A DNA stretch of 64,000 nucleotides from Escherichia coli (lineage in GTDB: Bacteria; Pseudomonadota; Gammaproteobacteria; Enterobacterales; Enterobacteriaceae): the NCBI RefSeq assembly GCF_046105845.1, contig NZ_CP151004.1. One strand, written 5' to 3'. Both the position numbers and the translations under genes were made by a program. How positions within the stretch are numbered: position 1 is the stretch's first letter; each line of letters opens with the position of its first letter. The notes under the pieces were generated by a model. That model searched no databases. It had not been told where the DNA came from and saw nothing but the letters and a program-made list of their open reading frames with translations. Below, piece after piece: positions 7,042-36,394 of this stretch.

Positions 7042-8943
7042 ATGGCTGAATTCGAAACCACTTTTGCAGATCTGGGCCTGAAGGCTCCTATCCTTGAAGC
7101 CCTTAACGATCTGGGTTACGAAAAACCATCTCCAATTCAGGCAGAGTGTATTCCACATCTGCTGAATGGCCGCGACGTCCTGGGTATGGCCCAGACGGGG
7201 AGCGGAAAAACTGCAGCATTCTCTTTACCTCTGCTGCAGAATCTTGATCCTGAGCTGAAAGCACCACAGATTCTGGTGCTGGCACCGACCCGCGAACTGG
7301 CGGTACAGGTTGCTGAGGCAATGACGGATTTCTCTAAACACATGCGCGGCGTAAACGTGGTTGCCCTGTACGGCGGCCAGCGTTATGACGTGCAATTACG
7401 CGCCCTGCGTCAGGGGCCGCAGATCGTTGTCGGTACTCCGGGCCGTCTGCTGGATCACCTGAAACGTGGCACTCTGGACCTTTCTAAACTGAGCGGTCTG
7501 GTTCTGGATGAAGCTGACGAAATGCTGCGCATGGGCTTCATCGAAGACGTTGAAACCATTATGGCGCAGATCCCGGAAGGTCATCAGACCGCTCTGTTCT
7601 CTGCAACCATGCCGGAAGCGATTCGTCGCATTACCCGCCGCTTTATGAAAGAGCCGCAGGAAGTGCGCATTCAGTCCAGCGTGACTACCCGTCCTGACAT
7701 CAGCCAGAGCTACTGGACTGTCTGGGGTATGCGTAAAAACGAAGCACTGGTACGTTTCCTGGAAGCGGAAGATTTTGATGCGGCGATTATCTTCGTTCGT
7801 ACCAAAAATGCGACTCTGGAAGTGGCTGAAGCTCTTGAGCGTAACGGCTACAACAGCGCCGCGCTAAACGGTGACATGAACCAGGCGCTGCGTGAGCAGA
7901 CACTGGAACGCCTGAAAGATGGTCGTCTGGACATCCTGATTGCGACCGACGTTGCGGCCCGTGGCCTGGACGTTGAGCGTATCAGCCTGGTAGTTAACTA
8001 CGATATCCCGATGGATTCTGAGTCTTACGTTCACCGTATCGGTCGTACTGGTCGTGCGGGCCGTGCTGGCCGTGCGCTGCTGTTCGTTGAGAACCGTGAG
8101 CGTCGTCTGCTGCGCAACATTGAACGCACCATGAAGCTGACCATTCCGGAAGTTGAACTGCCGAACGCAGAACTGCTGGGCAAACGTCGTCTGGAAAAAT
8201 TCGCCGCTAAAGTACAGCAGCAGCTGGAAAGCAGCGATCTGGATCAATACCGTGCACTGCTGAGCAAAATTCAGCCGACTGCCGAAGGCGAAGAGCTGGA
8301 TCTCGAAACTCTGGCCGCCGCACTGCTGAAAATGGCACAGGGTGAACGTACTCTGATTGTTCCGCCAGATGCGCCGATGCGTCCGAAACGTGAATTCCGT
8401 GACCGTGATGACCGTGGTCCGCGCGATCGTAACGACCGTGGCCCGCGTGGTGACCGTGAAGATCGTCCGCGTCGTGAACGTCGTGATGTTGGCGATATGC
8501 AGCTGTACCGCATTGAAGTGGGCCGCGATGATGGTGTTGAAGTTCGTCATATCGTTGGCGCGATTGCTAACGAAGGTGACATCAGCAGCCGTTACATTGG
8601 TAACATCAAGCTGTTTGCTTCTCACTCCACCATCGAACTGCCAAAAGGTATGCCGGGTGAAGTGCTGCAACACTTTACGCGTACTCGCATTCTCAACAAG
8701 CCGATGAACATGCAGTTACTGGGCGATGCACAGCCGCATACTGGCGGTGAGCGTCGTGGCGGTGGTCGTGGTTTCGGTGGCGAACGTCGTGAAGGTGGTC
8801 GTGAAGGCGGTCGTAACTTCAGCGGTGAACGCCGTGAAGGTGGTCGTGGTGATGGTCGTCGTTTTAGCGGCGAACGTCGTGAAGGCCGCGCTCCGCGTCG
8901 TGATGACTCTACCGGTCGTCGTCGTTTCGGTGGTGATGCGTAA
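7042..8943 (+). CDS. deaD: Cold-shock DEAD-box ATP-dependent RNA helicase DeaD/CsdA
   Basis: Start at [13 protein letters not shown]; motifs GSGKTAAF (Walker A), [18 protein letters not shown]; Arg/Gly-rich repetitive C-terminal tail; ORF 6976..8943 is a 5' over-extension. Confidence 0.94.
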
Positions 8944-9096: not shown

Positions 9097-10341
9097 ATGG
9101 CAACACTAACCACCACCCAAACGTCACCGTCGCTGCTTGGCGGCGTGGTGATCATCGGCGGCACCATTATTGGCGCAGGGATGTTTTCTCTGCCAGTGGT
9201 TATGTCCGGGGCGTGGTTCTTCTGGTCAATGGCGGCGCTGATCTTTACCTGGTTCTGTATGCTGCATTCCGGCTTGATGATTCTGGAAGCTAACCTGAAT
9301 TATCGAATCGGTTCTAGCTTTGACACCATCACCAAAGATTTGCTGGGCAAAGGCTGGAACGTAGTCAACGGCATTTCCATTGCCTTTGTGCTCTATATCC
9401 TGACTTACGCCTATATTTCTGCCAGCGGTTCGATTCTGCATCACACCTTCGCGGAGATGTCGCTGAACGTCCCTGCACGGGCAGCTGGATTTGGTTTTGC
9501 ACTGCTGGTAGCGTTCGTGGTGTGGTTGAGTACGAAAGCTGTCAGCCGGATGACAGCAATTGTGCTGGGGGCGAAAGTCATTACTTTCTTCCTCACCTTC
9601 GGCAGCCTGCTGGGGCATGTACAGCCAACGACCTTGTTCAACGTTGCCGAAAGCAATGCGTCTTATGCGCCGTATCTGCTGATGACACTGCCATTCTGTC
9701 TGGCATCGTTTGGTTATCACGGTAACGTGCCGAGCCTGATGAAGTATTACGGCAAAGATCCGAAAACCATCGTGAAATGCCTGGTGTACGGTACGCTGAT
9801 GGCGCTGGCGCTGTATACCATCTGGTTGCTGGCGACGATGGGCAACATCCCTCGTCCGGAGTTTATCGGCATTGCCGAGAAGGGCGGTAACATTGATGTG
9901 CTGGTACAGGCATTAAGCGGCGTGCTGAACAGCCGTAGCCTGGATCTGCTGCTGGTCGTGTTCTCAAACTTTGCGGTAGCGAGTTCGTTCCTCGGCGTTA
10001 CGCTGGGTTTGTTTGACTATCTGGCAGATCTGTTTGGTTTCGATGACTCGGCTATGGGCCGCTTGAAAACAGCATTGTTGACCTTTGCACCGCCTGTTGT
10101 GGGTGGTCTGCTGTTCCCGAATGGATTCCTGTACGCCATTGGCTATGCTGGCTTAGCAGCTACCATCTGGGCGGCAATTGTACCGGCGCTGTTGGCCCGC
10201 GCATCGCGTAAACGCTTTGGCAGCCCGAAATTCCGCGTCTGGGGCGGTAAGCCGATGATTGCGCTGATTCTGGTGTTTGGCGTCGGCAACGCACTGGTGC
10301 ATATTTTATCGAGCTTTAATTTGCTGCCGGTGTATCAGTAA
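9097..10341 (+). CDS. mtr: Tryptophan-specific permease Mtr (aromatic amino acid HAAAP family)
   Basis: 414-aa polytopic membrane protein [33 protein letters not shown]... Confidence 0.96.
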
Positions 10342-10401
10342 TTGAACGAGCCGGATGAGCAGTTTTCATCCGGCAATAATTCACAAGTACACGAGATGGT
10401 A

Positions 10402-10932
10402 TCAAATAAACCCCTGTTTATTATAAAGTTCTTCAGCGAGAGCTTCCCCGTGCTCATCGAAAAAAGCATCGGCGATAGTTAAATTTTCTGCCTTAGGATT
10501 TGCCGTTATTTTGCTACCATTGGCATCAAATTCGAGCGCGATAGCGGTCTCCGAACCCCACCAGTAATAATAAATTAGCGCAAAATTATTTTCCCCTGGC
10601 GTAATAAACTTCTCGATTCCCCGCACACAGGCCATGAGTGGCATGAAGATTTCATAGCTCTCTGAGAGAAATATGTGATCCATCGTGACTATCTGTGTTT
10701 CTTTATTAAAGTTGATATGTTCGGCATAAATATTCTTTTCACTTTCACCAGAATTACAAGCTGCAAGATTGTTAAGCATTTTTGCAGGATCGCCGTACAA
10801 CCGCTGCTTCTCGATAAACCATGGCAACCAGTCGTCATGGTCTTTGATATTTGTTGCTGGTGAATGGAAAAACTTCTCGAGGTTACTCTCGGTAATATGT
10901 GCATGAAGAAAAAAGGAAGCCGGTTCACTCAT
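10402..10932 (-). CDS. Hypothetical 176-aa acidic cytoplasmic protein; no recognisable family; accessory relative to K-12
   Basis: Intact ORF in a visibly AT-rich segment, divergent from the neighbouring YafK-like gene; no signal peptide; aromatic-rich patch IYYYWWGSE; no catalytic motif recognised. Confidence 0.6.
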   Translation of the reverse strand: MSEPASFFLHAHITESNLEKFFHSPATNIKDHDDWLPWFIEKQRLYGDPAKMLNNLAACNSGESEKNIYAEHINFNKETQIVTMDHIFLSESYEIFMPLMACVRGIEKFITPGENNFALIYYYWWGSETAIALEFDANGSKITANPKAENLTIADAFFDEHGEALAEELYNKQGFI

Positions 10933-11089
10933 AATGATTTTCTCTGGTAATAAGTCGATTTGTTCATTTCTCTGTTTGGCGATGATAAAACGATGACTAT
11001 TTTATAAAAGTACAGAACTGGACCTTTTATCTATTTCATATCATAAGAAAATATATACAAGAACTGGCTCAGAATAAGCGGAATACGAA

Positions 11090-11809
11090 ATGGGGCGTAA
11101 AGGACTACTTGCTATTGTATTGTTGAGCCTGTTTATCGCCATGATTTTTCAATTTTTCTGGCCTGCCCCACACGATGAACACGTTTTCCTGCCAGTTGAA
11201 AAACCTGTCGCACCGTCTTTAAAAATCATTCATCCTGGTGACCAGTTATTTATCCGCATTCTGAAAGCGGAAGATAAGCTGGAACTGTGGGCAAGCACCA
11301 ACAACAAGCCTTACGAACTCTATAAAACCTGGACTATATGCGCGTGGTCTGGTGGCTTAGGGCCAAAACACAAACAGGGGGATGGTAAAAGCCCGGAAGG
11401 TTTTTATGCCACCAACAAAGGGTTGCTTAACCCAAACAGCCGCTATCATCTGGCATTTAATATTGGTTACCCGAATGCTTACGATCGGGCAAACGGCTAC
11501 ACCGGTGATTTCATTATGGTTCACGGGAACTGCGTTTCAGCGGGCTGCTATGCCATGACCGATGCTGGTATTGAAGAGATTTATCAACTGGTGGCGCAGG
11601 CGCTGAATAGCGGGCAGAAGAGCGTGCCGGTGCATATCTTCCCGTTTGCGATGAACGAAGAAAATATGCGCCAGGCGCAGGTATGGCCGGAATATAATTT
11701 CTGGCGTATGTTGAAGCCCGGCTATGATTACTTTGAAAAAAATCGCCGATTGCCAACCATCACCGTTGAAAACCGGCGTTATAAAATCAGCCCAACAATT
11801 CTTCCTTAA
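11090..11809 (+). CDS. YafK/DpaA-like L,D-transpeptidase-fold protein (paralog of the Lpp-peptidoglycan amidase family); accessory relative to K-12
   Basis: 239 aa with N-terminal hydrophobic segment [19 protein letters not shown]; motifs [39 protein letters not shown] (His/Cys of the YkuD-type active site), FPF and KPGYDYFE match my recollection of YafK. Confidence 0.7.
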
Positions 11810-12794
11810 CATCCATCGCCAGTTCAAACGAATGCAGGCGCGCCTGGTGATCGAAAATCTGCCCGTTAACCATAATCTCATCGGCGTCGGTTTCGCGCAG
11901 GATCGACTGCAAGCCATGACGCACTTTCGCTTTATCACCCACCAGCGACATACTCAGCGCCTGCTGCACGCCATACTGCTCGGACGGTGACCAGAACTGA
12001 TCCATATTTTGAATCGGCGGCGGTAGTTGCCCGGTTTCGCCACGGCGCAGCTTCACAAAGGCTTGCTGCATTGAGGTAAAGAGAAATTCAGCGTCGCGGT
12101 TGCTGTCGGCGGCGATAATATTGATGCACACCATCGCATACGGTTTTTCCAGCCGTGCCGACGGTTTGAAGTTGCTGCGATAAAGATGCAGCGCCTGGAA
12201 CAACATATCCGGCGCGAAGTGTGAGGCAAACGCAAACGGCAGACCAAGCTGCGCCGCCAGTTGCGCGCTGTAAAGGCTGGAGCCTAACAACCACACGGGG
12301 ATTTTCTCGCCATAGCCCGGTACCGGGCGCACATGCGGATTGGGATCGCGGGCGTCAAACCAGTCCACCAGCTCCGCGACATCGCGGGGGAAATTATCAA
12401 TATCGCCGCTCATATGACGACGTAGAGCCATCATGGTTCGCTGGTCACTACCCGGAGCACGGCCCAGCCCCAAATCGATTCGCCCCGGATAGAGCGTATT
12501 AAGCGTGCCGAACTGTTCGGCGATCACCAATGGTGAGTGATTAGGCAACATCACGCCGCCAGACCCCAGATGCAGCGTAGTGGTATTCGCCGCCAGATAG
12601 CCAATCAAAACTGATGTTGCAGCACTGGCAATGCCGGTCATATTGTGGTGTTCTGCCAGCCAGTAGCGATGATAGCCGCGCTTTTCAGCCAGACGGGCGA
12701 GCTCGAGAGAGTGGGAGAACGCTTCCCGCGCTGAAGAGCCTTCGGGAATGGGGGCCAGATCGAGTAGCGAAAACGCAATGGTTTTATCAGTCAT
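11787..12794 (-). CDS. yhbW: Luciferase-like flavin-dependent monooxygenase family protein YhbW
   Basis: 335-aa ORF; sequence and position match YhbW; stop overlaps the 3' end of the convergent YafK-like ORF by 23 nt. Confidence 0.93.
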
Positions 12795-12874
12795 AACAGC
12801 TCACTTTGTTACCGATTAATCTTTAATACTGCATTAAAGAGTAGTTAAAGTTGTTAACAAAGTGAGCTATTTAC

Positions 12875-13753
12875 TTAGGCTTGCAGCTCCAGCCCAGCCA
12901 GCCGCCGCCAGTAGCCGTTACAGTCGCTGTTTGCCGTCAACGGCAGTGGCGCAGCGCCATTTTCATTGGCGCGGAAGGCGTCGAGCATAGCGAAAGTGTC
13001 AGTCCCCTGCGGTGACAGACGAACCACATCAACCAGTCCCTGCATGGATGCCAGCTCGTTACCGAGGTTGTAAACGTAGCCGCTCATGGTCTGAATGCCG
13101 TTGAGTACAAACACTTGTTGGTTTTCCTGCGACAGCACGTTGCGCCCGTTCGGATACTTAATGCAGCAGGTTTCGCACTCATCTTTCGGGCGGTCTTCCG
13201 AACGCGCGGTAAAGCAGCGGGCGGAGTAGGCCAGCGGCAGATGACCGTAGCTCAGGACTTCCACTTCAAACTGGTTGCGAATGCCCAGCTCATCGCACTG
13301 ATTAAGCAGATTCACCAGCCAGTCGCGGGAAAGCTCCACCGGCATACACCAGCGCATCATGCCCTGTTTGAGCAATATTTTCAGCGTCACCGCGTTGTAG
13401 CAGTTCAGCGCGTGTCCGGCGACGAACGGTAGTTTGCGCTCAGCGCACATATTCACCACGCCGAGATCGCTGGCTTCAATCAGAAACTCACCGTTCTCAA
13501 CATAGCGTTTCAGTTCGCCCAGTTCAGAGGATGCCTGCACCAGCGCCAGCGTGGAGAGCACAATCTGCTTACCACTTCCGGCGAGTGATTTTGCCATCTC
13601 CAGCCAGTCGCCAACTTTGGTTGCCCGGCGCTTGCTGCATACCGCTTCACCAAGATAAATCACGTCGGCGCTGCTGGCGGCGGCCTGCTGATAAAATTCT
13701 TCCAGCGTCTCTTTTGGCCAGTACCACAGCACTGGCCCTAAGGAATATTTCAT
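12875..13753 (-). CDS. ubiV: U32-family protein UbiV (O2-independent ubiquinone biosynthesis)
   Basis: Start chosen at MKYSLGPVLWYWPKETLEEF (292 aa); the ORF track's 298-aa version begins 6 codons earlier; conserved Cys cluster present. Confidence 0.9.
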   Translation of the reverse strand: MKYSLGPVLWYWPKETLEEFYQQAAASSADVIYLGEAVCSKRRATKVGDWLEMAKSLAGSGKQIVLSTLALVQASSELGELKRYVENGEFLIEASDLGVVNMCAERKLPFVAGHALNCYNAVTLKILLKQGMMRWCMPVELSRDWLVNLLNQCDELGIRNQFEVEVLSYGHLPLAYSARCFTARSEDRPKDECETCCIKYPNGRNVLSQENQQVFVLNGIQTMSGYVYNLGNELASMQGLVDVVRLSPQGTDTFAMLDAFRANENGAAPLPLTANSDCNGYWRRLAGLELQA

Positions 13754-13761
13754 TGCTTTTC

Positions 13762-14757
13762 TCACTGCCATTTACGGTGATACGCGCCAAGGGTGGTCTG
13801 CGTGCCTTCGGACATCGACCCGAGCGTCTCCATCCACGCGCTTTGCGGTATGAAGTTTTGCGGATCGGCCTTACAACGGTCGATAGCCTGACGCCAGACT
13901 TTCGCCACCTGGCTGACATACGCCGGGCTACGCTGGCGGCCTTCAATTTTCACCGAAGCAATATTCGCTGCCATTAACTCCGGCAGCAGTTCCAGGGTAT
14001 TGAGACTGGTGGGTTCTTCCAGCGCGTGATAGCGCTCGCCGTCCACCAGATAACGCCCTTTACACAGCGTCGGATAACCTGCGTTTTCGCCATCCTGATA
14101 ACGGTCGATCAGCACTTCGTTCAGGCGAGATTCCAGCCCCTGCGGCGTTTGCTGCCAGCGCACGAAACGGGCCGGAGAACACGCACCCACAGTGTTGGGC
14201 GACTCACCCGTCAGATACGACGACAGATAGCAACGCCCTTCCGACATAATGCACAGGCTGCCGAAAGCAAACACTTCCAGCGGGACAGGTGTGACCCGTG
14301 CCAGTTGTTTCACCTGATGAATCGACAACACGCGCGGCAGCACCACGCGGGCAACGTCAAAATGGCGATGATAAAAGTTAATCGCCTCTTCATTGGTCGC
14401 CGAAGCCTGCACTGACACATGACGCTCAATATGCGGGTAACGCTCGGCGGCGTACTCCAGCATGGCGAGGTCGGCGAGGATCAGCGCGTCGGCACCCAGC
14501 TGCGCCGCCATATCCACGGCGCGCTGCCAGCGGGCGTAACCGTCCGGGTGCGCAAAAGTGTTAATCGCGATGTGAAGTTTGCGGCGATGTTGATGGACAA
14601 AACTCACCGCTTCCTGCAATTTTTTCTCGGTAAAGTTAAGGCCGGCGAAGTGACGGGCATTGGTATCATCTTTTAGCCCGATATAAACAGCATCTGCGCC
14701 GTTTTCGATGGCCGCCTTAAGCGCCGGGAGATTTCCGGCAGGGCAGAGCAGCTCCAT
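13762..14757 (-). CDS. ubiU: U32-family protein UbiU (O2-independent ubiquinone biosynthesis)
   Basis: Start chosen at MELLCPAGNLPALKAAIENGADAVYIGLKDD (331 aa); 3' end overlaps the ubiV start by 10 nt. Confidence 0.9.
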   Translation of the reverse strand: MELLCPAGNLPALKAAIENGADAVYIGLKDDTNARHFAGLNFTEKKLQEAVSFVHQHRRKLHIAINTFAHPDGYARWQRAVDMAAQLGADALILADLAMLEYAAERYPHIERHVSVQASATNEEAINFYHRHFDVARVVLPRVLSIHQVKQLARVTPVPLEVFAFGSLCIMSEGRCYLSSYLTGESPNTVGACSPARFVRWQQTPQGLESRLNEVLIDRYQDGENAGYPTLCKGRYLVDGERYHALEEPTSLNTLELLPELMAANIASVKIEGRQRSPAYVSQVAKVWRQAIDRCKADPQNFIPQSAWMETLGSMSEGTQTTLGAYHRKWQ

Positions 14758-14965
14758 AATTTTTCCTGAAGGTTGCGCTATCAAAACGCAAAAATGTTAA
14801 CGAACTGGGATTTTAGTTAACCTTGCTGCGACAATTTTTGATTTAAGGCAGTTAAAGTTGTATTGGTGGTAGCAGCAATTTCATATGGAATTGTTGATTT
14901 ATACCGCTATGTTATTTTTCTGATATGGCAAAATAGGATGATTGTTGAAACAGGGAGTAAAACTC

Positions 14966-15490
14966 GTGTTGGATAAACTGCGTTCCCGTATTGTGCATTT
15001 GGGGCCATCTCTGTTGAGTGTACCGGTAAAACTGACGCCATTTGCGCTAAAACGTCAGGTTCTTGAGCAGGTCCTAAGCTGGCAATTCCGTCAGGCGCTG
15101 GATGATGGCGAGCTGGAGTTTCTTGAAGGCCGCTGGTTAAGTATTCATGTGCGTGATATTGACCTGCAATGGTTTACCTCGGTGGTGAATGGCAAACTGG
15201 TCGTTAGCCAGAACGCGCAAGCTGATGTGAGTTTTAGTGCCGACGCCAGCGATCTGCTGATGATTGCGGCGCGTAAACAAGATCCGGATACGCTCTTCTT
15301 CCAGCGTCGGCTGGTGATTGAAGGCGATACGGAGCTGGGGCTGTATGTGAAAAACCTGATGGACGCCATTGAACTGGAGCAAATGCCGAAAGCCTTACGC
15401 ATGATGCTGCTGCAACTGGCGGATTTTGTTGAGGCGGGAATGAAAACCGCGCCTGAAACCAAACAGACATCGGTAGGTGAACCATGCTAA
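14966..15490 (+). CDS. ubiT: SCP2-domain lipid-binding protein UbiT (YhbT)
   Basis: 174-aa product if the GTG at 14966 is used (VLDKLRSRIVHLGPSLLSVPVKL...); the ORF track's ATG at 14942 is an alternative; divergent from ubiUV. Confidence 0.85.
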   Translation: MLDKLRSRIVHLGPSLLSVPVKLTPFALKRQVLEQVLSWQFRQALDDGELEFLEGRWLSIHVRDIDLQWFTSVVNGKLVVSQNAQADVSFSADASDLLMIAARKQDPDTLFFQRRLVIEGDTELGLYVKNLMDAIELEQMPKALRMMLLQLADFVEAGMKTAPETKQTSVGEPC

Positions 15491-15987
15491 TTCGAGTAGA
15501 AATTCCCATTGATGCGCCGGGTATTGATGCCCTGCTGCGTCGTTCATTCGAAAGTGATGCGGAAGCGAAGCTGGTTCACGATCTGCGTGAAGATGGCTTT
15601 CTGACGTTGGGGCTGGTGGCGACAGATGACGAAGGTCAGGTCATTGGCTATGTGGCATTTAGTCCGGTTGATGTGCAGGGCGAAGACCTGCAATGGGTCG
15701 GCATGGCACCGCTGGCGGTAGATGAAAAATACCGTGGACAGGGGCTGGCACGCCAACTGGTCTATGAAGGACTCGATTCGCTCAATGAGTTCGGCTATGC
15801 CGCAGTGGTGACGCTGGGCGATCCGGCGCTGTACAGTCGTTTCGGCTTTGAACTGGCGGCGCATCACGATCTGCGTTGCCGCTGGCCGGGCACTGAAAGC
15901 GCCTTCCAGGTACATCGTTTAGCGGATGACGCGCTGAACGGCGTAACCGGTCTGGTTGAGTATCACGAGCATTTCAATCGCTTTTAA
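15484..15987 (+). CDS. yhbS: GNAT-family N-acetyltransferase YhbS
   Basis: 167-aa ORF; start overlaps the ubiT stop (ATGCTAA). Confidence 0.92.
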
Positions 15988-16276
15988 TCTCCGGGGGTTG
16001 CAGGCTGCTCAACAGCTCTGCAAACCCTGCGCCTTCCGCTACCAGACGCTCTTTTTGCCGTTTGGTCAGTTGCTTAACGCGATATTCCGCCCGTAGTGCC
16101 AGCGAACGATCGCCCACTGGCGCGGAAAACGCCAGCGTTAGTTCTCCTTTCCCGCGCAGTGCTTTCGCCCCTTTGCCGCTTTGGTGCTGCTGATAGCGGC
16201 GTTCGACATCTGTGGTGATCCCGGTATAAAGCTTATTGTCGGCGGTACGGATCAAGTAAAGAAACCAGGGTGTCAT
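15974..16276 (-). CDS. yhbQ: GIY-YIG domain protein YhbQ (UPF0213)
   Basis: 100-aa [34 protein letters not shown]... (GIY-YIG motif); convergent 14-nt overlap with yhbS. Confidence 0.92.
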
Positions 16277-16326
16277 CGTCTGCGTCGCATGTTAAGGTCA
16301 GGCCCACAGTATAAAAGAGAACAGCA

Positions 16327-16749
16327 ATGGAAACACTCACCGCCATCAGCCGTTGGCTGGCAAAACAACATGTTGTCACCTGGTGTGTGCAGCAGGAAGG
16401 GGAACTCTGGTGCGCTAATGCCTTTTATCTTTTTGATGCGCAGAAAGTCGCCTTCTACATTTTGACGGAAGAAAAAACGCGCCACGCGCAGATGAGTGGG
16501 CCGCAGGCGGCAGTTGCCGGAACGGTAAACGGTCAGCCGAAAACGGTAGCGTTAATTCGCGGCGTGCAATTTAAAGGCGAGATCCGCAGGCTTGAAGGTG
16601 AGGAAAGCGACCTCGCACGCAAGGCGTACAACTGTCGCTTTCCGGTTGCCAGAATGCTGTCGGCCCCGGTATGGGAAATCCGGCTCGATGAAATCAAATT
16701 CACCGACAACACGCTGGGCTTTGGTAAAAAAATGATTTGGCTACGTAAC

Positions 16750-16770
<21 letters not shown>
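16327..16770 (+). CDS. yhbP: UPF0306 protein YhbP (PNPOx-like FMN-binding fold)
   Basis: 147-aa ORF matching YhbP. Confidence 0.92.
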
Positions 16771-17280
<510 letters not shown>

Positions 17281-17281
17281 A

Positions 17282-18031
<750 letters not shown>

Positions 18032-18103
18032 TTATTCCCAAGAATTGATAGTGAGCGTAATATTCACGCGCTCAATTATCATAACTTATTCCTGGGGAAT
18101 GCT

Positions 18104-19144
18104 ATGACTGGTCAGTCTTCATCTCAGGCGGCAACGCCCATTCAGTGGTGGAAACCCGCGCTTTTCTTTCTCGTTGTCATTGCTGGTCTCTGGTATGTGA
18201 AATGGCAACCTTACTACGGCAAAGCGTTTACTGCTGCCGAAACCCACAGTATCGGTAAATCTATCCTTGCGCAGGCGGATGCTAATCCGTGGCAGGCGGC
18301 GTTGGATTACGCGATGATCTATTTCCTCGCGGTATGGAAAGCGGCGGTGCTGGGCGTACTGCTCGGGTCGTTGATTCAGGTGCTGATTCCGCGTGACTGG
18401 TTGCTGCGTACGCTTGGGCAATCGCGCTTTCGCGGCACGCTGCTGGGAACGCTGTTTTCGCTGCCGGGCATGATGTGTACCTGCTGTGCGGCTCCGGTCG
18501 CGGCGGGAATGCGTCGCCAACAGGTATCGATGGGCGGGGCGCTGGCATTCTGGATGGGGAATCCGTTGTTAAACCCGGCGACGCTGGTGTTTATGGGGTT
18601 TGTCCTCGGCTGGGGGTTTGCGGCGATTCGTCTGGTGGCGGGGCTGGTGATGGTGTTGCTGATTGCGACGCTGGTGCAAAAATGGGTACGTGAAACACCG
18701 CTAACGCAGGCACCGGTCGAAATTGACATACCGGAAGCGCAGGGCGGATTTTTTAGCCGCTGGGGCAGGGCGCTATGGACGCTTTTCTGGAGTACGATCC
18801 CGGTTTATATCCTTGCCGTACTGGTGTTGGGTGCCGCTCGCGTCTGGTTATTCCCCCATGCTGATGGTGCTGTCGATAACAGCCTGATGTGGGTGATTGC
18901 GATGGCGGTAGCGGGATGCTTGTTTGTCATTCCAACGGCAGCAGAAATTCCAATTGTACAAACGATGATGCTGGCAGGCATGGGAACCGCTCCGGCGCTG
19001 GCATTGTTGATGACGCTCCCGGCGGTGAGTTTGCCGTCACTGATTATGCTGCGCAAAGCGTTCCCGGCGAAAGCCTTATGGCTGACGGGGGCGATGGTGG
19101 CAGTGTCAGGTGTGATTGTCGGCGGGTTGGCGCTGTTGGCCTAA
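18104..19144 (+). CDS. yraQ: Inner-membrane permease YraQ (UPF0718)
   Basis: 346-aa polytopic membrane protein with CxxC motifs. Confidence 0.92.
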   Translation: MTGQSSSQAATPIQWWKPALFFLVVIAGLWYVKWQPYYGKAFTAAETHSIGKSILAQADANPWQAALDYAMIYFLAVWKAAVLGVLLGSLIQVLIPRDWLLRTLGQSRFRGTLLGTLFSLPGMMCTCCAAPVAAGMRRQQVSMGGALAFWMGNPLLNPATLVFMGFVLGWGFAAIRLVAGLVMVLLIATLVQKWVRETPLTQAPVEIDIPEAQGGFFSRWGRALWTLFWSTIPVYILAVLVLGAARVWLFPHADGAVDNSLMWVIAMAVAGCLFVIPTAAEIPIVQTMMLAGMGTAPALALLMTLPAVSLPSLIMLRKAFPAKALWLTGAMVAVSGVIVGGLALLA

Positions 19145-20460: not shown

Positions 20461-20856
20461 TTATGAGTGGTCATTAAAGGCATCCTTAATCCACTCAACC
20501 TCATTCCCGGTGAAGGCTACCACATCGAACCGGCAATCCACAGTATCAAAACTCCCATTATGACGCGCGAGCCACAAGCGGGCAGTCTGTAATAATTTGT
20601 GTTGTTTGCTGCGGGTCACACTGGCTGCCGCGCCGCCATAAAGCGCAGAGCGGCGGTAACGCACCTCAACAAAAACGGTGGTCCGGCCTTCACGCATTAT
20701 CAGATCGATCTCGCCGCCACGCTCGTTCACGTTAGCGGCGATAAACCGCAGTCCTTTGCCTTCCAGCCAGCGACGCGCTTGTGCTTCCCACGCATCGCCG
20801 GTCTGTTTGGTGGTTAACTGGCGGGGACTACCTGACCTTGTTGGTACTGTAGCCAT
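20461..20856 (-). CDS. yraN: UPF0102 protein YraN
   Basis: 131-aa ORF; start region overlaps the lpoA 3' end. Confidence 0.92.
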
Positions 20857-23790: not shown

Positions 23791-24885
23791 TTACCTGACA
23801 ATAACCGTAATGGTAGCTGATGCTTTAAAAGGTCCGGTCGACAATACTCCACCGACCAGATTTACAGGATAAGCCTGAAAGTGTGTTGTTCCTGCTCCGG
23901 TTTTATCTAGCAGAATGATGCCTGGATTAAATGGAACATCTACTTGCCCTTTAGTCACATCCATAAGGCGGATACCAACATCAGGGACATCATCACTTTC
24001 ACGGCGTCTTGCGACTAAATTATATTGATTAACATAATCTGAACCTTCAATTTTCATATACAAGCTATTGTTAATTTGGGACATATCACCGCAATCATAG
24101 GTAATATCAAAGCTTACTGGAGTGTAACCTGTTGGCATCTGATTTTGTAGGGTGAAACGTTGAGCGCTAATAAATCCAAGATTTACATTAATGGTATCAC
24201 CTTGATTTATTTTGCAACTTTGAGGTACCGTAATTCGGCCTTGAATATAGATTTTAGCAATATCCTTAATGGGACGTGGTGCAGCAGAAGTACTTGTCCA
24301 CGCAGCCTGGACTGAAGCAATATGTGTTTCAGGGATATTCAGTTCACCCAAAAATGGCGTAGTGACGTATAGTGTAATCGTTGTATTTTTACCAATAGAA
24401 AAGTCTGATCCCCGAACATTGGCTGGGTCGGCCATGCACACACTATTGTTTTTGTTAGCATGGTAAGTACCAGTACCGTCTCTAAGCGGTGTATATGAAT
24501 TGCTTGGAACCATAACAGATGGATTACCAGGAATGTCGTTTATTTGGGTTTTAATATCCAGATTAGAATTCAGTCGATAGAAATCTCGTTCTTTACCTTG
24601 AGTTATTAATGCAGATGTTACTGTATAATACAGGTTAACTTTACTACCTGCCGGACAAGAGCAGTTTAAGGTGTAATTGCTCCCAATAGCTGAATTCTTT
24701 ACCACATAATCTTTGCCGGCAACATTATTATCTTGTGTCCAGTCCTCAGAAGCATCTGTCCGAAATTCACCTGTTCCTTCACAATCACCTGTTGCTGCCT
24801 TTACCGATGGGCTAAGTAACAGGGGGGAGACCACGGCAGCAATAGACAATAGTTGTTTAATCATTTTGAAACTCCCTAAAGACAC
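23791..24885 (-). CDS. yraK: Fimbrial adhesin-like protein YraK (chaperone-usher fimbriae)
   Basis: 364-aa ORF with signal peptide; last gene of the yraHIJK operon. Confidence 0.9.
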   Translation of the reverse strand: MSLGSFKMIKQLLSIAAVVSPLLLSPSVKAATGDCEGTGEFRTDASEDWTQDNNVAGKDYVVKNSAIGSNYTLNCSCPAGSKVNLYYTVTSALITQGKERDFYRLNSNLDIKTQINDIPGNPSVMVPSNSYTPLRDGTGTYHANKNNSVCMADPANVRGSDFSIGKNTTITLYVTTPFLGELNIPETHIASVQAAWTSTSAAPRPIKDIAKIYIQGRITVPQSCKINQGDTINVNLGFISAQRFTLQNQMPTGYTPVSFDITYDCGDMSQINNSLYMKIEGSDYVNQYNLVARRRESDDVPDVGIRLMDVTKGQVDVPFNPGIILLDKTGAGTTHFQAYPVNLVGGVLSTGPFKASATITVIVR

Positions 24886-27398
24886 TTTGCCGAATCACGA
24901 ATAATGGGGGTAGTGATGTTCGCGCTATCGTTCAGACTAAACGTAAACTGGCATTGTTGGTTTATTCCACTTCCCCAGCGAACCTTCCAGGTTTGTGGTT
25001 TTTTATTAATGCCGGAGAGATAAATAACTCCAGCTTCATCGACAATACTTTGTTGGAATTGGCCTTCATTACTGGCAACAGCACCAAAAGGAATGGGCTT
25101 ACCTTGGACGTCAGTTAGTGCTAATAGCACTCTGTGACCGGTTTGGGCATTAAAATTTGCAACGACAGCGGCGCCCTGTCCTGGCACGACAATCTTTGCA
25201 GTCTCCTGGACATCTACATTATCCGGCATTGTAGTAGTGTCTAAGGCAATACGATTTTCCTGATAAGCCGTTAAATAAGGGATGACGGCGTAACCAAAGT
25301 AATCGGTGGCAATACCAGGGTAATTTTTAACCCGAATATTAGATGCACCCTGGGTATCAATTACGGCAAATGTATTACCCAGCGGTTGTGAGAGAGTCAC
25401 CCCATGGGGGTGTGCGACAATTCCACCTGAAAGACCATAGCTGAACTGGCGACTGTTTGACGTGTAATCATAGTTGGCGTTAACAGTGCCATAAGCAGAG
25501 CGGTAACTACCAGAAAGCGTACTGCCGTTATTATTATTTTCCTGGTCCATTCGTTGTTTAAAGCTGTAACTTAATCGGTTGTCATCAAGGAAAGAACCGG
25601 TAATGCCAGTCTCATATTGAGTTGAACGGTATTTTTCATCAGTGACACGAAACGTAGCTTGTGCATTAGGTAACCAACGATCCAGAGGCAGACTAATACT
25701 AAAAAAGATTGCCCTATCACTATCGCGATCGGAATAATCTGTGAATTGTCCACTCACGCTGTAGCTGATGCCGGCAAGATAGCCGTTCAGTCCGGCAGAA
25801 TAATTGCGATCATTTTGTTCTGCTCCCCAGTATTCTCGTTGTGCACCTGAAATATAAAAACTGAGATTATCAGTCAGCGTTTGGTTAACGTTGAAAATCG
25901 CTTCGCTGCGTTGGCGATTGTTTACATTAATATCACGTTGGTTTGCGTCGGCAAAGGTAAAAAAAACTGAGTTGGAATAGCGCGAGTAACTAAGAGAAAG
26001 GCTTGTTCCTGTTTCGGGTATATCTTTAATATATTGAAAACGTAAACCTTCCCCGGTAAATTTTTCTTTATTTTCTAACTTCGTTTTGGCATAAGTTAAA
26101 TCAACGGAAAGTGCGCCCAAAATACTCAATGTGCTACCGATGCCTAATGCTGCTGCTTGATAATCCTTGGATCCAGTTACCCCACCATAAAGAGTGAAAA
26201 TATTAGTAAGGCCGTAAAATGCTGTGCCTTCGATGAACTCTGGTTCTTTACTATTAGATGACGGGTCTGCACGAAATCGCCCTGCTGTCATGCTATATAA
26301 AAGATGGCCTGGCCGTTGCATAACAGGAAGTGCTGAAAACGGCTGAGTAAATTGGCGAACGGTACCATCGGCTTCTTCAATTGTAACGTCTAAATCACCG
26401 CTAAATGAGGATGGATAGAGATCGTTGATTTCGAATGCTCCCGCCGGGACATTGCTTTGATAAATTGTATAGCCATTCTGGCGGATGGTGACTATTGCGC
26501 TGGTATTGGCAATCCCACGGATAATCGGTGCAAAACCTCGTAAGCTATTCGGTAACATGTTCTCGTCAGAATAAATTCTGGCACCCGTAAACTGAACGCT
26601 GGAAAAAATTGTGCCATCAGTGGCGCTTTCACCAAGCACTAATTGCGACTTTAAACTCTTAATATCACGCTGCAACCAACTATTAATACTATCCCAGCGA
26701 GTCTCATTACTGCTATGTGTCCACGTGGAGTAATTACGCAACCGCCATGGGCCGATATTGACTCCATTTTGCATATTGAGATAAAACCTTTCATTCTTTT
26801 CGCTGTTACTATAATAACTGTTCGAGCCACTAAAACTGTAATTGGTAAACAATACTGGAATACCATGATCCCACCTGGCGGGATCAACATAACCAGAAGG
26901 GTCACGCCGCAGGGCAATTTGTGGAATGTCCAGGATGAGAGTGCTATGGTTGAGGTCTATCTTTGTTTTGCTTCCAGGTACGGTTTTGGATAAATCTGTT
27001 ATCAGGGCGTTGTCATCAAGAGTATTTAGTGAATTTATTTCGTCAACTTTAAAACCCAATTCGCGTAAAAGACCAACGGTAAGCTGTGGGCGAATTTCTC
27101 CATTATCATCTATAGCAAAAGTGATTTTTCTCTGAGTCACCTTTTTTTTATTGATAACGATCTCAACATCATAATCACCGGGACTATGAGTATTTTTACC
27201 GGAGAAAGCAGATAAATCGCTTGCCTTTTGACCACTCTTTGTTGTTTCCAGCAATGAGGGATCAAAATAGTAATTGTCAGCAATGGCATGAAGAGGGGAC
27301 AGAACTCCACCAGTAATAAGAACAGGTAATACTGTTTTTAACCAGCAGGAAAGTGGTTTCATAACAGGTAAAGAGATGCATTTTATTTTGGTTTTCAT
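24876..27398 (-). CDS. yraJ: Fimbrial outer-membrane usher YraJ
   Basis: 840-aa usher-family protein. Confidence 0.93.
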   Translation of the reverse strand: MKTKIKCISLPVMKPLSCWLKTVLPVLITGGVLSPLHAIADNYYFDPSLLETTKSGQKASDLSAFSGKNTHSPGDYDVEIVINKKKVTQRKITFAIDDNGEIRPQLTVGLLRELGFKVDEINSLNTLDDNALITDLSKTVPGSKTKIDLNHSTLILDIPQIALRRDPSGYVDPARWDHGIPVLFTNYSFSGSNSYYSNSEKNERFYLNMQNGVNIGPWRLRNYSTWTHSSNETRWDSINSWLQRDIKSLKSQLVLGESATDGTIFSSVQFTGARIYSDENMLPNSLRGFAPIIRGIANTSAIVTIRQNGYTIYQSNVPAGAFEINDLYPSSFSGDLDVTIEEADGTVRQFTQPFSALPVMQRPGHLLYSMTAGRFRADPSSNSKEPEFIEGTAFYGLTNIFTLYGGVTGSKDYQAAALGIGSTLSILGALSVDLTYAKTKLENKEKFTGEGLRFQYIKDIPETGTSLSLSYSRYSNSVFFTFADANQRDINVNNRQRSEAIFNVNQTLTDNLSFYISGAQREYWGAEQNDRNYSAGLNGYLAGISYSVSGQFTDYSDRDSDRAIFFSISLPLDRWLPNAQATFRVTDEKYRSTQYETGITGSFLDDNRLSYSFKQRMDQENNNNGSTLSGSYRSAYGTVNANYDYTSNSRQFSYGLSGGIVAHPHGVTLSQPLGNTFAVIDTQGASNIRVKNYPGIATDYFGYAVIPYLTAYQENRIALDTTTMPDNVDVQETAKIVVPGQGAAVVANFNAQTGHRVLLALTDVQGKPIPFGAVASNEGQFQQSIVDEAGVIYLSGINKKPQTWKVRWGSGINQQCQFTFSLNDSANITTPIIRDSAKCL

Positions 27399-27450
27399 TA
27401 TTCCCTTATTTCCTTATTCCCTGTCATATGTATAAGTTTTGTATAAATAA

Positions 27451-28143
27451 TTATGGCAAAGTAGATGTATATGTATCCGTATTACCGCCATAGTCATTAA
27501 TGGCTGCCCATTTCACGATGTTTTCTGAAACTAATGGCAATGGTAATTGCTTATGTTCACCCGGTGCAATAAATTCTATTTTATCGGTAAAGTCGGTTTT
27601 TCCTACAGCCAGTCCTGAAAAAACAACGTAATATGCCGAAGGATTATATATCTCCAGTTGGTTGTTCTTCCTTGAGAATTTTAGGCCTTTATAGGCATCT
27701 GAAGGTCTACCGTCCATTTCTGATGGTCTGTAAAAGAGTTTAATGCGTGTTTTAAATACTAAAGTAAGTAGGTTCTTATCTTGCGTTTCTTTTTTATCGA
27801 CAGCAGGAATTGCACGGACGTTAATATAAAAAAGTGATTCTTTATCTCTCGGTAGATTGCCATCGGTTTTAATGATACGCAATGAAGAGTTGTCTCCGGC
27901 ATCAAGACGAAATAGCGGAGGGGTAATAATAAAAGGGCCGCGAGAAGAGTCATAGATATTTTCAACCCACGATTGTAATAAATATGGTGGTTTATCACTT
28001 CGATTAGTGACCGGCAATGCAGCTTCTTTTTTACTACCATCATAAACTACACGCGTTCTTTCCAGAAGGATTCCACCAGCCAGACTCTGGTTCACCCAGC
28101 CAGCTAATAGAAAAAGTATTGCAAACGATTTTTTAATCTTCAT
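27451..28143 (-). CDS. yraI: Periplasmic fimbrial chaperone YraI (PapD-like)
   Basis: 230-aa ORF with signal peptide. Confidence 0.92.
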
Positions 28144-28232
28144 CTTCTGTTACCGCTACGAAATAAAATTGTCTCTTTAACAGCAGACCGCTAAAGAGAC
28201 AAAATAAAGGATTATGAACTAATGACTAGTTA

Positions 28233-28805
28233 TCAACGATAATCAAGAGTTACATCCACAGTAGCATTAGCTTCACCGGGTTTGATTTTATCGGCTGTTG
28301 TGGTTGACACATAGTAAGCCGCTAAATCTAAATTCATCGTGGAACCAGTAATTGGGAAAGATATCTTTGGAACACTAAGTTTGTTAATTGCCATAGGTGT
28401 TTGAGCATCTTTTTCAATCCGAATACCAACACCTGTAGCCGCGGTATCTGGGTCCATACTTGTAACAGCAACTAACTCATTGTTATCACCGGTAGTTGCT
28501 CCGTTACGCGTTTCCAGCCATAACTGGAAAGACGCATCTTTAGTACCATCAATGTGATCCCAGGCTACCGTTGGGCAGTTTTTCAACGGAATAGTGAAAG
28601 GGATCGTAGGGGATTTATCCCCTTTAAACTTAAACTGATTAGCGGCATAGTGACCTAATTCAACATAAACTGTATCACCATTCGCAAATTCACAGACAGT
28701 GCCAAGAATTTCACCCGTGAATTCAATTTTTCCATCGGTTGCGGAGGCGCTACCGGCAAAAAGCGCCAGCAGGCCAGCGGCAACTGTCTTAGCTACTTTA
28801 CTCAT
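28233..28805 (-). CDS. yraH: Major fimbrial subunit YraH
   Basis: 190-aa fimbrial subunit with signal peptide; preceded by about 1 kb of AT-rich DNA. Confidence 0.9.
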   Translation of the reverse strand: MSKVAKTVAAGLLALFAGSASATDGKIEFTGEILGTVCEFANGDTVYVELGHYAANQFKFKGDKSPTIPFTIPLKNCPTVAWDHIDGTKDASFQLWLETRNGATTGDNNELVAVTSMDPDTAATGVGIRIEKDAQTPMAINKLSVPKISFPITGSTMNLDLAAYYVSTTTADKIKPGEANATVDVTLDYR

Positions 28806-35260: not shown

Positions 35261-36394
35261 TCAAAACGAAGCTAATTGACCCTGAATCCAGATTTGTTGC
35301 ACATGCAGCCCGCTATCCAGCGCAACGACGCTGGCGCGTTTGCCCGGTTTAAGCGATCCCAGAACATCATCAACACCCAGCATACGCGCCGGATGCAGCG
35401 ACGCCATATGGATGGCTTCCGCAGGCGTTACGTCCGTCAACTCGACCATGTTGCGCACTGCCGCATCGACAGACAGCGTACTGCCCGCCAGCCCACCGGA
35501 CGCGGTACGGACAACGCCACCGTGCATCTGCACTTCTTCACCACATAACGTATAGCGACCATCCGGCATCCCTGCTGCCTGCATCGCGTCGGTGATGAGC
35601 ACGATTCTCTCTTTCGCACAGCAACAACACAGCGACATCGCCGCCGGATGCACATGATTACCATCGGCTATCAGTTCCAGCCAGGCGCGCTTGTCCGTTA
35701 ATCCCGCGCCAACCATTCCCGGTTCGCGGTGATGTAAACCTGTCATCCCGTTATAGCAATGCACCAAGCCGTCGGCACCAGCGTCAAACGCGGCACGGGT
35801 TTGTTGCCAGGTCGCCGCGCTATGCCCCAGCATCACCCGTACGTTTTGCTGTTTAAGATGGCGGATGGCCTGCAATGCCCCTTCTTTTTCCGGTGCCAGC
35901 GCTACCACGCGCAAGGTGTGCTGAGAAACGGCAATCAACTGATCCAGCTCGGCAATTTCCAGCTCGCGAAACAGCTCCGGCGGATGCGCGCCTTTATTCT
36001 GCGGCGTGAAGTATGGTCCTTCGAGATAACTCCCCAGCACTTGCGCACCAGGTCCGCCGCGTTGGCAACGTTGAGCAATACGTTTCAGCGCCGCATGAAT
36101 GGTATTAAGCGGAGCGGTTACGGTGGTCGGTAACCAACTGCCGACACCTTCGCGTGCTTTGTGCATTGCCAGCTTGTCGAGCACATCCGGCGCGTCATCC
36201 ATTACATCAACGCCCGCACCACCGTGTACATGGGTGTCGATGTAAGCGGGGCAGAGCAGTTCCGCATCGCGTTCAGTCACGCCCACTGGAATCGGTTCGA
36301 TTGCTGCGATGACACCGTCAGCAATACGCAACTGATGGTCATCGAGCCATCCCTCTTCAGTCAGCAGCCTTCTGGCGCGCAGAACGTGTGTCAT
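35261..36394 (-). CDS. agaA: N-acetylgalactosamine-6-phosphate deacetylase AgaA, full length
   Basis: 377-aa product from MTHVLRARRLL; start ATG overlaps the agaF stop (ATGA); metal-binding HxH motif (DTHVHGG) present; intact, unlike the truncated K-12 allele. Confidence 0.92.
   Translation of the reverse strand: MTHVLRARRLLTEEGWLDDHQLRIADGVIAAIEPIPVGVTERDAELLCPAYIDTHVHGGAGVDVMDDAPDVLDKLAMHKAREGVGSWLPTTVTAPLNTIHAALKRIAQRCQRGGPGAQVLGSYLEGPYFTPQNKGAHPPELFRELEIAELDQLIAVSQHTLRVVALAPEKEGALQAIRHLKQQNVRVMLGHSAATWQQTRAAFDAGADGLVHCYNGMTGLHHREPGMVGAGLTDKRAWLELIADGNHVHPAAMSLCCCCAKERIVLITDAMQAAGMPDGRYTLCGEEVQMHGGVVRTASGGLAGSTLSVDAAVRNMVELTDVTPAEAIHMASLHPARMLGVDDVLGSLKPGKRASVVALDSGLHVQQIWIQGQLASF

Follow-up and report, generated by a model that had tools for sequence, protein, structure and literature searches.

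The window analysed here is a 64,000-nucleotide (nt) stretch of an Escherichia coli chromosome that reaches from infB to yhaK. We focus on the block from yhbW to yhbO, in which three convergent gene pairs, ldt/yhbW, yhbS/yhbQ and yhbP/yhbO, share coding sequence at their 3' ends (Table 1). The genes are ordered infB-rbfA-truB-rpsO-pnp-nlpI-yrbN-deaD-mtr, hyp176-ldt-yhbW-ubiV-ubiU, ubiT-yhbS, yhbQ, yhbP, yhbO and yraR-yraQ, followed by the aga, gar and tdc genes up to yhaK. Of 5426 complete genomes, 5424 match positions 11000-17500 with an identity of 95-99% (best 98.7%), and the remaining window matches equally well.

Gene coordinates were carried over from the RefSeq annotation of strains 135 and NRZ14408, and each coding sequence was checked to be an intact open reading frame (ORF) in the window. 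For the comparative analysis, we used 80 Enterobacteriaceae loci, one genome per species with YhbQ, and located the genes of the block and their stops in each locus.

Table 1. Coordinates of the genes, overlaps and candidate signals discussed in the text (aa, amino acids)
Feature	Position	Strand	Description
rbfA/truB overlap	2125	+	1 nt, TAATG
Accessory two-gene insert (hyp176 and YafK-like ldt)	10342-11790		1.45 kb; replaces the 117-nt K-12 spacer between the mtr and yhbW stops
hyp176	10402-10932	-	Hypothetical protein, 176 aa, in accessory insert
ldt	11090-11809	+	YafK/DpaA-like L,D-transpeptidase-family gene, 239 aa; Pfam YkuD E=1.8e-6
Candidate yhbW intrinsic terminator inside ldt	11736-11778	-	Hairpin 11744-11778, then U7 run 11736-11742; minimum free energy fold
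yhbW	11787-12794	-	Luciferase-like monooxygenase, 335 aa
ldt/yhbW convergent coding overlap	11787-11809		23 nt, TCAGCCCAACAATTCTTCCTTAA; Ldt tail ...ISPTILP read antisense of the yhbW 3' end
ubiV	12875-13753	-	292 aa, correct start 13753
ubiU stop-ubiV start spacer	13754-13761	-	8 nt; 7-10 nt in 73 species
ubiU	13762-14757	-	331 aa
FNR site F1	14838-14851	+	Activates ubiUVp; TTGATTTAAGGCAG, exact match to published validated site
FNR site F2	14894-14907	+	Activates ubiTp2; TTGATTTATACCGC, exact match to published validated site
ubiT	14966-15490	+	GTG start, 174 aa
ubiT/yhbS same-strand overlap	15484-15490	+	7 nt, ATGCTAA
yhbS (hqbA)	15484-15987	+	GNAT acetyltransferase, 167 aa
yhbS/yhbQ convergent coding overlap	15974-15987		14 nt, TCAATCGCTTTTAA
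yhbQ	15974-16276	-	GIY-YIG nuclease, 100 aa, domain residues 4-76 (Pfam)
Palindromic hairpin, no U tract	15993-16028		36 nt, directly 3' of the yhbS stop, within the variable tail-coding part of yhbQ
yhbP	16327-16770	+	YhbP family, 147 aa
yhbP/yhbO convergent coding overlap	16750-16770		21 nt, 7 codons, both codon sets in register
yhbO	16750-17268	-	DJ-1/PfpI deglycase, 172 aa, domain residues 3-168 (Pfam)
Rho termination region for yhbP-sense read-through	~17100-17180	+	MG1655 3299102(-) maps to ~17140; method resolution coarse
agaF/agaA overlap (agaA annotated nagA)	36391-36394	-	4 nt, ATGA

Convergent overlaps join a conserved and a variable C-terminus

An earlier reading of this DNA from its letters and ORFs (hereafter the sequence-only reading) had proposed convergent overlaps of 23 nt between the YafK-like gene and yhbW, 14 nt between yhbS and yhbQ and 21 nt between yhbP and yhbO. 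The stop codons and frames bear out all three. The six genes involved are real protein-coding ORFs, with stops and frames checked and with family or orthologue support for each protein.

In 68 of 76 species, the length of YhbS is 167 aa, and its last eight residues show a conservation of 0.79, while YhbQ ranges from 92 to 106 aa and has a conservation of 0.14 over its last eight columns. The two genes overlap in 77 of the 80 species, by 14 nt in 65, by 4 nt in seven, by 17 nt in four and by 25 nt in one. The last codons of yhbS (...CAC TTC AAT CGN TTT TAA) are conserved, and in their reverse complement every antisense frame reaches a stop after 25 nt or less. Thus, the length of the overlap only reports the frame in which yhbQ arrives.

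The pair yhbP/yhbO shows the same asymmetry. In 49 of 51 species, YhbO is 172 aa long, and the conservation of its last eight residues is 0.96, while YhbP has 140-148 aa and a last-eight-column conservation of 0.23. The Pfam domains of YhbO and YhbQ fit this contrast, as DJ-1/PfpI extends to residue 168 of 172 in YhbO and GIY-YIG stops at residue 76 of 100 in YhbQ. Among the 53 species that carry yhbO, the overlap measures 21 nt in 32 and 15 nt in 13 (together 45). Where yhbO is present, YhbP has the additional tail SGTEQA, read from the antisense strand of the YhbO codons for ...RLLGA. The yhbO gene is absent in 27 of the 80 species, E. albertii and E. whittamii among them. Most YhbP proteins of these species end at most two residues past the conserved WLR motif (WLRDL, WLRQE or WQR). 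A few have, instead, different tails that are short and unrelated (for example WLREQAGVL and, in Buttiauxella, WLRDDTKLGE), and yraR begins 3-42 nt past the shortened yhbP in nearly all 27 species. Since the tail opposite yhbO is missing where yhbO is missing, we conclude that the tail of YhbP is a dispensable run-on. In two loci (L004, which is E. coli SCPM-O-B-8794, and L006), yhbO itself is apparently frameshifted by a 7-nt deletion (GTACGGC within CCGGCGTACGGCTGG).

The block is tightly spaced, with distances of -14, +50 and -21 nt along yhbS-yhbQ-yhbP-yhbO. The divergent spacer between yhbQ and yhbP comprises only 50 nt (16277-16326), and thus both promoters and 5' untranslated regions must overlap each other or sit within the neighbouring genes.

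The third overlap lies at the edge of the accessory insert. Homology to K-12 ends at 10342, 1 nt past the mtr stop, and resumes at 11791, 2 nt inside yhbW; the K-12 spacer that the insert replaces holds, by our reading, a repetitive extragenic palindromic (REP)-like palindrome. Of 5426 complete E. coli genomes, 183 carry the insert of hyp176 and ldt, which is missing from K-12 and from the 80 species loci. YhbW has 335 aa in 55 of 61 species, with a last-eight-residue conservation of 0.87. The closest homologues of Ldt end with ...RRYK(F/I)N, whereas Ldt of the window goes on with ...KISPTILP and is 5 aa longer. Its frame has no stop where yhbW of E. coli reads TTG-GGC-TGA, and it ends at the TAA that lies antisense of GTT-AAG in yhbW.

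We rejected the idea that the insert is unique to E. coli, as the same site is occupied in K. oxytoca-type genomes and in another genus. The ldt module is present at this mtr-yhbW site with or without hyp176 (loci L085-L091), and its distance to yhbW differs between genomes: +131 nt with a REP-like spacer on an Escherichia-like contig (L088), +42 nt in the K. oxytoca-type genomes (L089-L091), -8 nt in the other genus (L085 and L087) and -23 nt in the window. L088 apparently also retains a degenerate second yhbW 3' end beside ldt. A homologue of hyp176 with 59-88% identity lies beside ldt in L088-L091, and hyp176 had no match in Pfam, NCBIfam or PDB sequences. Against the NCBIfam equivalog NF040599 (LdtF_DpaA_YafK), Ldt scores 252.5 bits, which is under the cutoff of 365; we thus regard it as a YafK-like paralogue and not as YafK itself.

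Transcripts extend beyond the coding overlaps

The sequence-only reading had further claimed that the transcripts overlap at their 3' ends. This claim stands insofar as a convergent coding overlap forces 3' complementarity whenever both mRNAs are made, and as two of the pairs are in a published K-12 list. Using ExcludonFinder, convergent excludons were defined as pairs whose transcripts overlap in at least 50% of 58 RNA-seq data sets (PMC12288877). The resulting 165 convergent excludons of MG1655 include yhbQ-yhbS and yhbO-yhbP, which are named there as convergent pairs with overlapping transcripts, and the nearby pairs yhaL-cyuA, yhaV-agaR and argG-yhbX (PMC12288877). The pair ldt/yhbW is missing from this list, as it does not exist in K-12.

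Since there is no intergenic spacer, each mRNA has to end inside the partner gene, and the transcripts overlap far beyond the coding overlap. Rho ends at least the read-through in yhbP sense. A Rho termination region was mapped at MG1655 3299102(-), antisense in yhbO, with a score of 4.79 and p=2.7e-9 (Adams et al., PMC7815308, supplementary file 2), which places it some 370 nt past the stop of yhbP. The Term-seq tables of the same study give no 3' end closer than about 150 nt to the yhbS/yhbQ or the yhbP/yhbO junction (PMC7815308). A simple terminator search of the sequence gave no convincing candidate for an intrinsic terminator at the three convergent junctions, and an Rfam search of positions 10000-18500 returned no family match and only two sub-threshold chance hits. 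The published data thus indicate long, diffuse and partly Rho-terminated read-through, not precise bidirectional termination.

One hairpin inside ldt might act on yhbW. It starts 9 nt past the yhbW stop and could end yhbW transcription in strains that carry the insert, as judged from its predicted fold. Its 121-nt context is no more stable than shuffled sequences (z=-0.5). The arms of the hairpin are two Asn-Arg-Arg codon triplets of ldt, and they are lost in more distant ldt homologues.

Overlaps as probable by-products of run-on reading frames

We consider it probable, at roughly 80%, that the overlaps are real coding overlaps of an ordinary kind, in a block where small transcription units, most of them with a single gene, are tightly packed. 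One partner of each convergent pair (YhbW, YhbS or YhbO) keeps a fixed, conserved C-terminus, and the other partner (ldt, yhbQ or yhbP) lacks a stop codon of its own ahead of the neighbour. The run-on partner then reads the antisense strand of the neighbour up to the first in-frame stop, which is supplied by conserved codons of the neighbour: TCA in the Phe-Asn codons of yhbS, TTA and CTA in Leu codons of yhbO, and GTT-AAG in yhbW. The overlap length would be frozen by selection on the conserved partner and not by selection on the overlap. Among the three overlaps, ldt/yhbW would be the youngest, a junction by-product of the accessory insert in a minority of E. coli. The variable, dispensable tails and the ldt spacing, which ranges from +131 to -23 nt, argue that the overlaps are by-products rather than regulatory designs. 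We infer that they originated neutrally and have no dedicated regulatory role.

Such overlaps resemble those that were surveyed before. Tail-to-tail overlaps that arise by stop loss and 3' extension (PMC4161906; PairWise Neighbours, PMC2716372) are likewise short 3'-3' overlaps in which one gene continues into the other as far as the next in-frame stop, and their conservation likewise exceeds that of the spacing between non-overlapping pairs. We find no substantive difference to these pairs; a run of three consecutive overlapping junctions, as seen here, would be expected about once in a genome. This expectation was obtained as follows. Three of the nine convergent junctions of the window overlap, and all three lie in the yhbW-yhbO block (Fisher p=0.012). 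K-12 has about 75 convergent overlapping pairs genome-wide (Huvet & Stumpf 2014, PMC4161906), and we estimated about 630 convergent junctions per genome from the 15% share of convergent junctions in the window, which gives an overlap rate of about 0.12 per junction. By chance, three convergent junctions in a row would then overlap about once in a genome, and two in a row about nine times. The clustering is thus unremarkable, the more so as ldt/yhbW is strain-specific.

Some observations weigh against this interpretation. The deep conservation of adjacency and overlap is equally expected of a functional excludon, and overlaps are hard to reverse by mutation, so that their persistence cannot tell neutrality from function. 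Furthermore, the palindromic hairpin at 15993-16028 is unusually stable in E. coli, with fold z-scores of -2.8 on the plus strand and -4.4 on the minus strand, and 22 sequences have G-C and 13 have C-G at one of its pairs (23-54), which shows a degree of compensatory change.

The first alternative is that the pairs are functional convergent excludons, in which transcribing one gene lowers the expression of its partner by polymerase collision or RNase III, such that yhbS and yhbQ, as well as yhbP and yhbO, would be mutually exclusive. Both pairs are part of the published MG1655 excludome, their arrangement is conserved across Enterobacteriaceae and yhbP-sense RNA runs into yhbO up to the Rho region; the FNR-inducible ubiT-yhbS promoter could, in addition, drive conditional antisense transcription through yhbQ. 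However, the only change that accompanies the absence of yhbO is a shorter YhbP, the overlap length varies freely (-4, -14, -17 and -25 nt) and so does the ldt-yhbW spacing. The listing as an excludon reflects RNA-seq coverage and not a demonstrated effect, and we found no reciprocal-expression data specific to either pair. We thus regard functional excludons as unlikely. A more elaborate version would see the deeply conserved, spacer-free arrangement of yhbS facing yhbQ and, 50 nt further, yhbP facing yhbO as a conditional excludon pair: anaerobic, FNR-induced transcription of ubiT-yhbS would silence yhbQ, Rho-terminated yhbP read-through would damp the stress deglycase gene yhbO and the palindrome at 15993-16028 would position the collisions. 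This version is speculative and, in our view, improbable. If it were true, oxygen sensing would be linked to the expression of a DNA-damage nuclease; the present evidence does not require it.

The second alternative concerns overlapping bidirectional terminators, where hairpins near the overlapped stops would pause converging polymerases and generate sharp 3' ends on both strands. Terminators of this ynaJ-uspE type are reportedly also known from SEnd-seq (Ju et al. 2019). The convergent yhbS/yhbQ ends with their nearby hairpin that lacks a U tract are similar to the collision-driven, Rho-independent, overlapping bidirectional terminators of the ynaJ-uspE type (Wang et al., bioRxiv 10.1101/2022.10.23.513370). 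The palindrome at 15993-16028 is a possible, albeit unproven, pause or termination element. Over 47 distinct sequences from different species, 68% of its cells are paired, compared to 30-52% in slid controls, but its covariation is partial, and the covariation score is equalled by a slid control. RNAalifold on 48 aligned yhbS/yhbQ junctions gave no consensus structure, and the hairpin is deleted in genera with a short YhbQ. In a sliding 40-nt stability profile (77 and 53 loci), the yhbS/yhbQ junction is merely a local minimum and not the most stable spot on average. On the sense strand, a local stability minimum also follows directly after the stop of yhbP. The hairpin at this stop (GGCG-TAA-CGCC) is not retained in Citrobacter or Klebsiella, and a palindrome at 16808-16824 that encodes QLVTS is inseparable from the protein constraint and was therefore not counted. 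Unlike at the ynaJ-uspE type, the published tables that we checked show no sharp, coincident, Rho-independent 3' ends on the two strands, termination past yhbP is Rho-dependent and the yhbS/yhbQ hairpin is weakly conserved. Bidirectional termination is thus quite improbable for these junctions.

Lastly, miscalled gene ends or spurious ORFs explain the supposed ubiU/ubiV overlap, which vanishes with the conserved start, and the overlong ubiU from TTG 14784, but for the three convergent pairs such an artefact is hardly credible and was refuted, since these overlaps rest on unambiguous stop codons alone and the six genes have family support and conserved orthologues.

For the interpretation as ordinary overlaps, we see little significance beyond housekeeping. 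The reference annotation already contains the overlaps, and both the overlap of the transcripts and the FNR region are in the literature. The use of the analysis lies in its corrections (no overlap between ubiU and ubiV, a 1-nt overlap between rbfA and truB and a ubiU start at 14757) and in the mechanistic reading in which a dispensable run-on tail meets a conserved C-terminus and the codons of the partner set the overlap length.

Same-strand junctions

Two same-strand overlaps were found as the sequence-only reading had proposed them, namely ATGCTAA at ubiT/yhbS and the 4-nt ATGA at agaF/agaA. In both cases, the start overlaps the stop of the upstream gene on the same strand, and both are standard operon junctions that permit translational coupling. 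The junction ATG-YTR-A between ubiT and yhbS is kept in 76 of 76 species, and the co-transcription of the two genes was shown by reverse transcription PCR (Arias-Cartin et al. 2023, PMC10470549). By its sequence, the conserved 7-nt overlap is consistent with translational coupling. When comparing these junctions to the -1/-4 class of translationally coupled, co-directional overlaps (PMC10666635), agaF/agaA (ATGA, -4), rbfA/truB (TAATG, -1) and yhaV/prlF (-1) are textbook cases, whereas ubiT/yhbS is a rarer -7 overlap that is nevertheless kept in all 76 species.

For rbfA/truB, an ATGA overlap had been proposed. The genes do overlap, but by 1 nt in TAATG: the stop of rbfA is TAA, and the letters ATGA exist at the junction without their TGA being the rbfA stop.

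The proposed 10-nt overlap between ubiU and ubiV could not be upheld. It requires ubiV to start at ATG 13771, whereas RefSeq and K-12 (NP_417628.2) use 13753, and this conserved start leaves a gap of 8 nt. The ubiV start ATGAAATA at 13753 is present in 73 of 73 species, 7-10 nt past the ubiU stop. The upstream ATG is part of the conserved Lys-Trp-Gln codons of UbiU, and it is unusable in 20 of the 73 species: in 12 it is not in frame, and in 8 an in-frame stop comes after it. The sequence-only reading had itself stated that revised starts or stops could remove the overlaps, and for ubiU/ubiV a revised start does so.

Further same-strand overlaps in the window are found at agaD/agaC (11 nt), agaE/agaW (11 nt) and yhaV/prlF (1 nt). 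The longest coding overlap in the window is that of yraN/lpoA, with 43 nt at 20814-20856. The deaD gene (7042-8943) exceeds its counterpart in strain 135 by 12 nt (4 codons), and it shares 8 nt with yrbN, the small gene upstream.

The divergent ubiT-ubiUV region

The ubiT gene diverges from ubiUV, and the spacer between them has 208 nt (14758-14965). Its left limit had been placed at 14785, which stems from the longest ORF with an upstream TTG start at 14784 and makes ubiU too long. The annotated start of ubiU is the ATG at 14757, so that the spacer begins at 14758.

The sequence-only reading had suggested a shared anaerobic regulatory region and a search for a pair of FNR half-sites. Scanning 14758-14965 with the FNR consensus TTGATNNNNATCAA and at most two mismatches gave no match. 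The published sites F1 and F2 are nevertheless found exactly in the spacer; each carries three mismatches in the right half of the box, which is why the scan missed them, and they were located only via their published sequences. Both are TTGAT-N4-ATCAA-related boxes as in class II-type FNR promoters and identical to sites that were validated by mutation; ubiUV is activated from F1 and, independently, ubiTp2 from F2 (Arias-Cartin et al. 2023, PMC10470549). In addition, ubiT has a constitutive promoter (PMC10470549). F1 is kept in 73 of 73 species and F2 in 72 of 73, and the TTGAT half-site is invariant across these 72-73 species. The region is thus a known FNR-controlled divergent region, and it is shared in location only, as the two sites act independently. 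When comparing the window to the published locus (PMC10470549), F1 and F2, the gene order and the ubiT-yhbS operon are the same, and we find no differences in this other E. coli strain. The FNR control of the region is already known from the literature.

Other features of the window

A chaperone-usher fimbrial operon at 23791-28805 encodes a fimbrial protein, an 840-aa usher, a PapD-like chaperone and a further fimbrial protein. We take it to be yraHIJK-like, and it is absent between rsmI and agaI in E. coli strain 135. Within the operon, the genes for 364 aa and 840 aa share 10 nt. Furthermore, yhaB (50412-50952) has 541 nt, compared to 540 nt in the reference strain, and contains five in-frame stops; in the strain of the window, a frameshift has probably turned it into a pseudogene.

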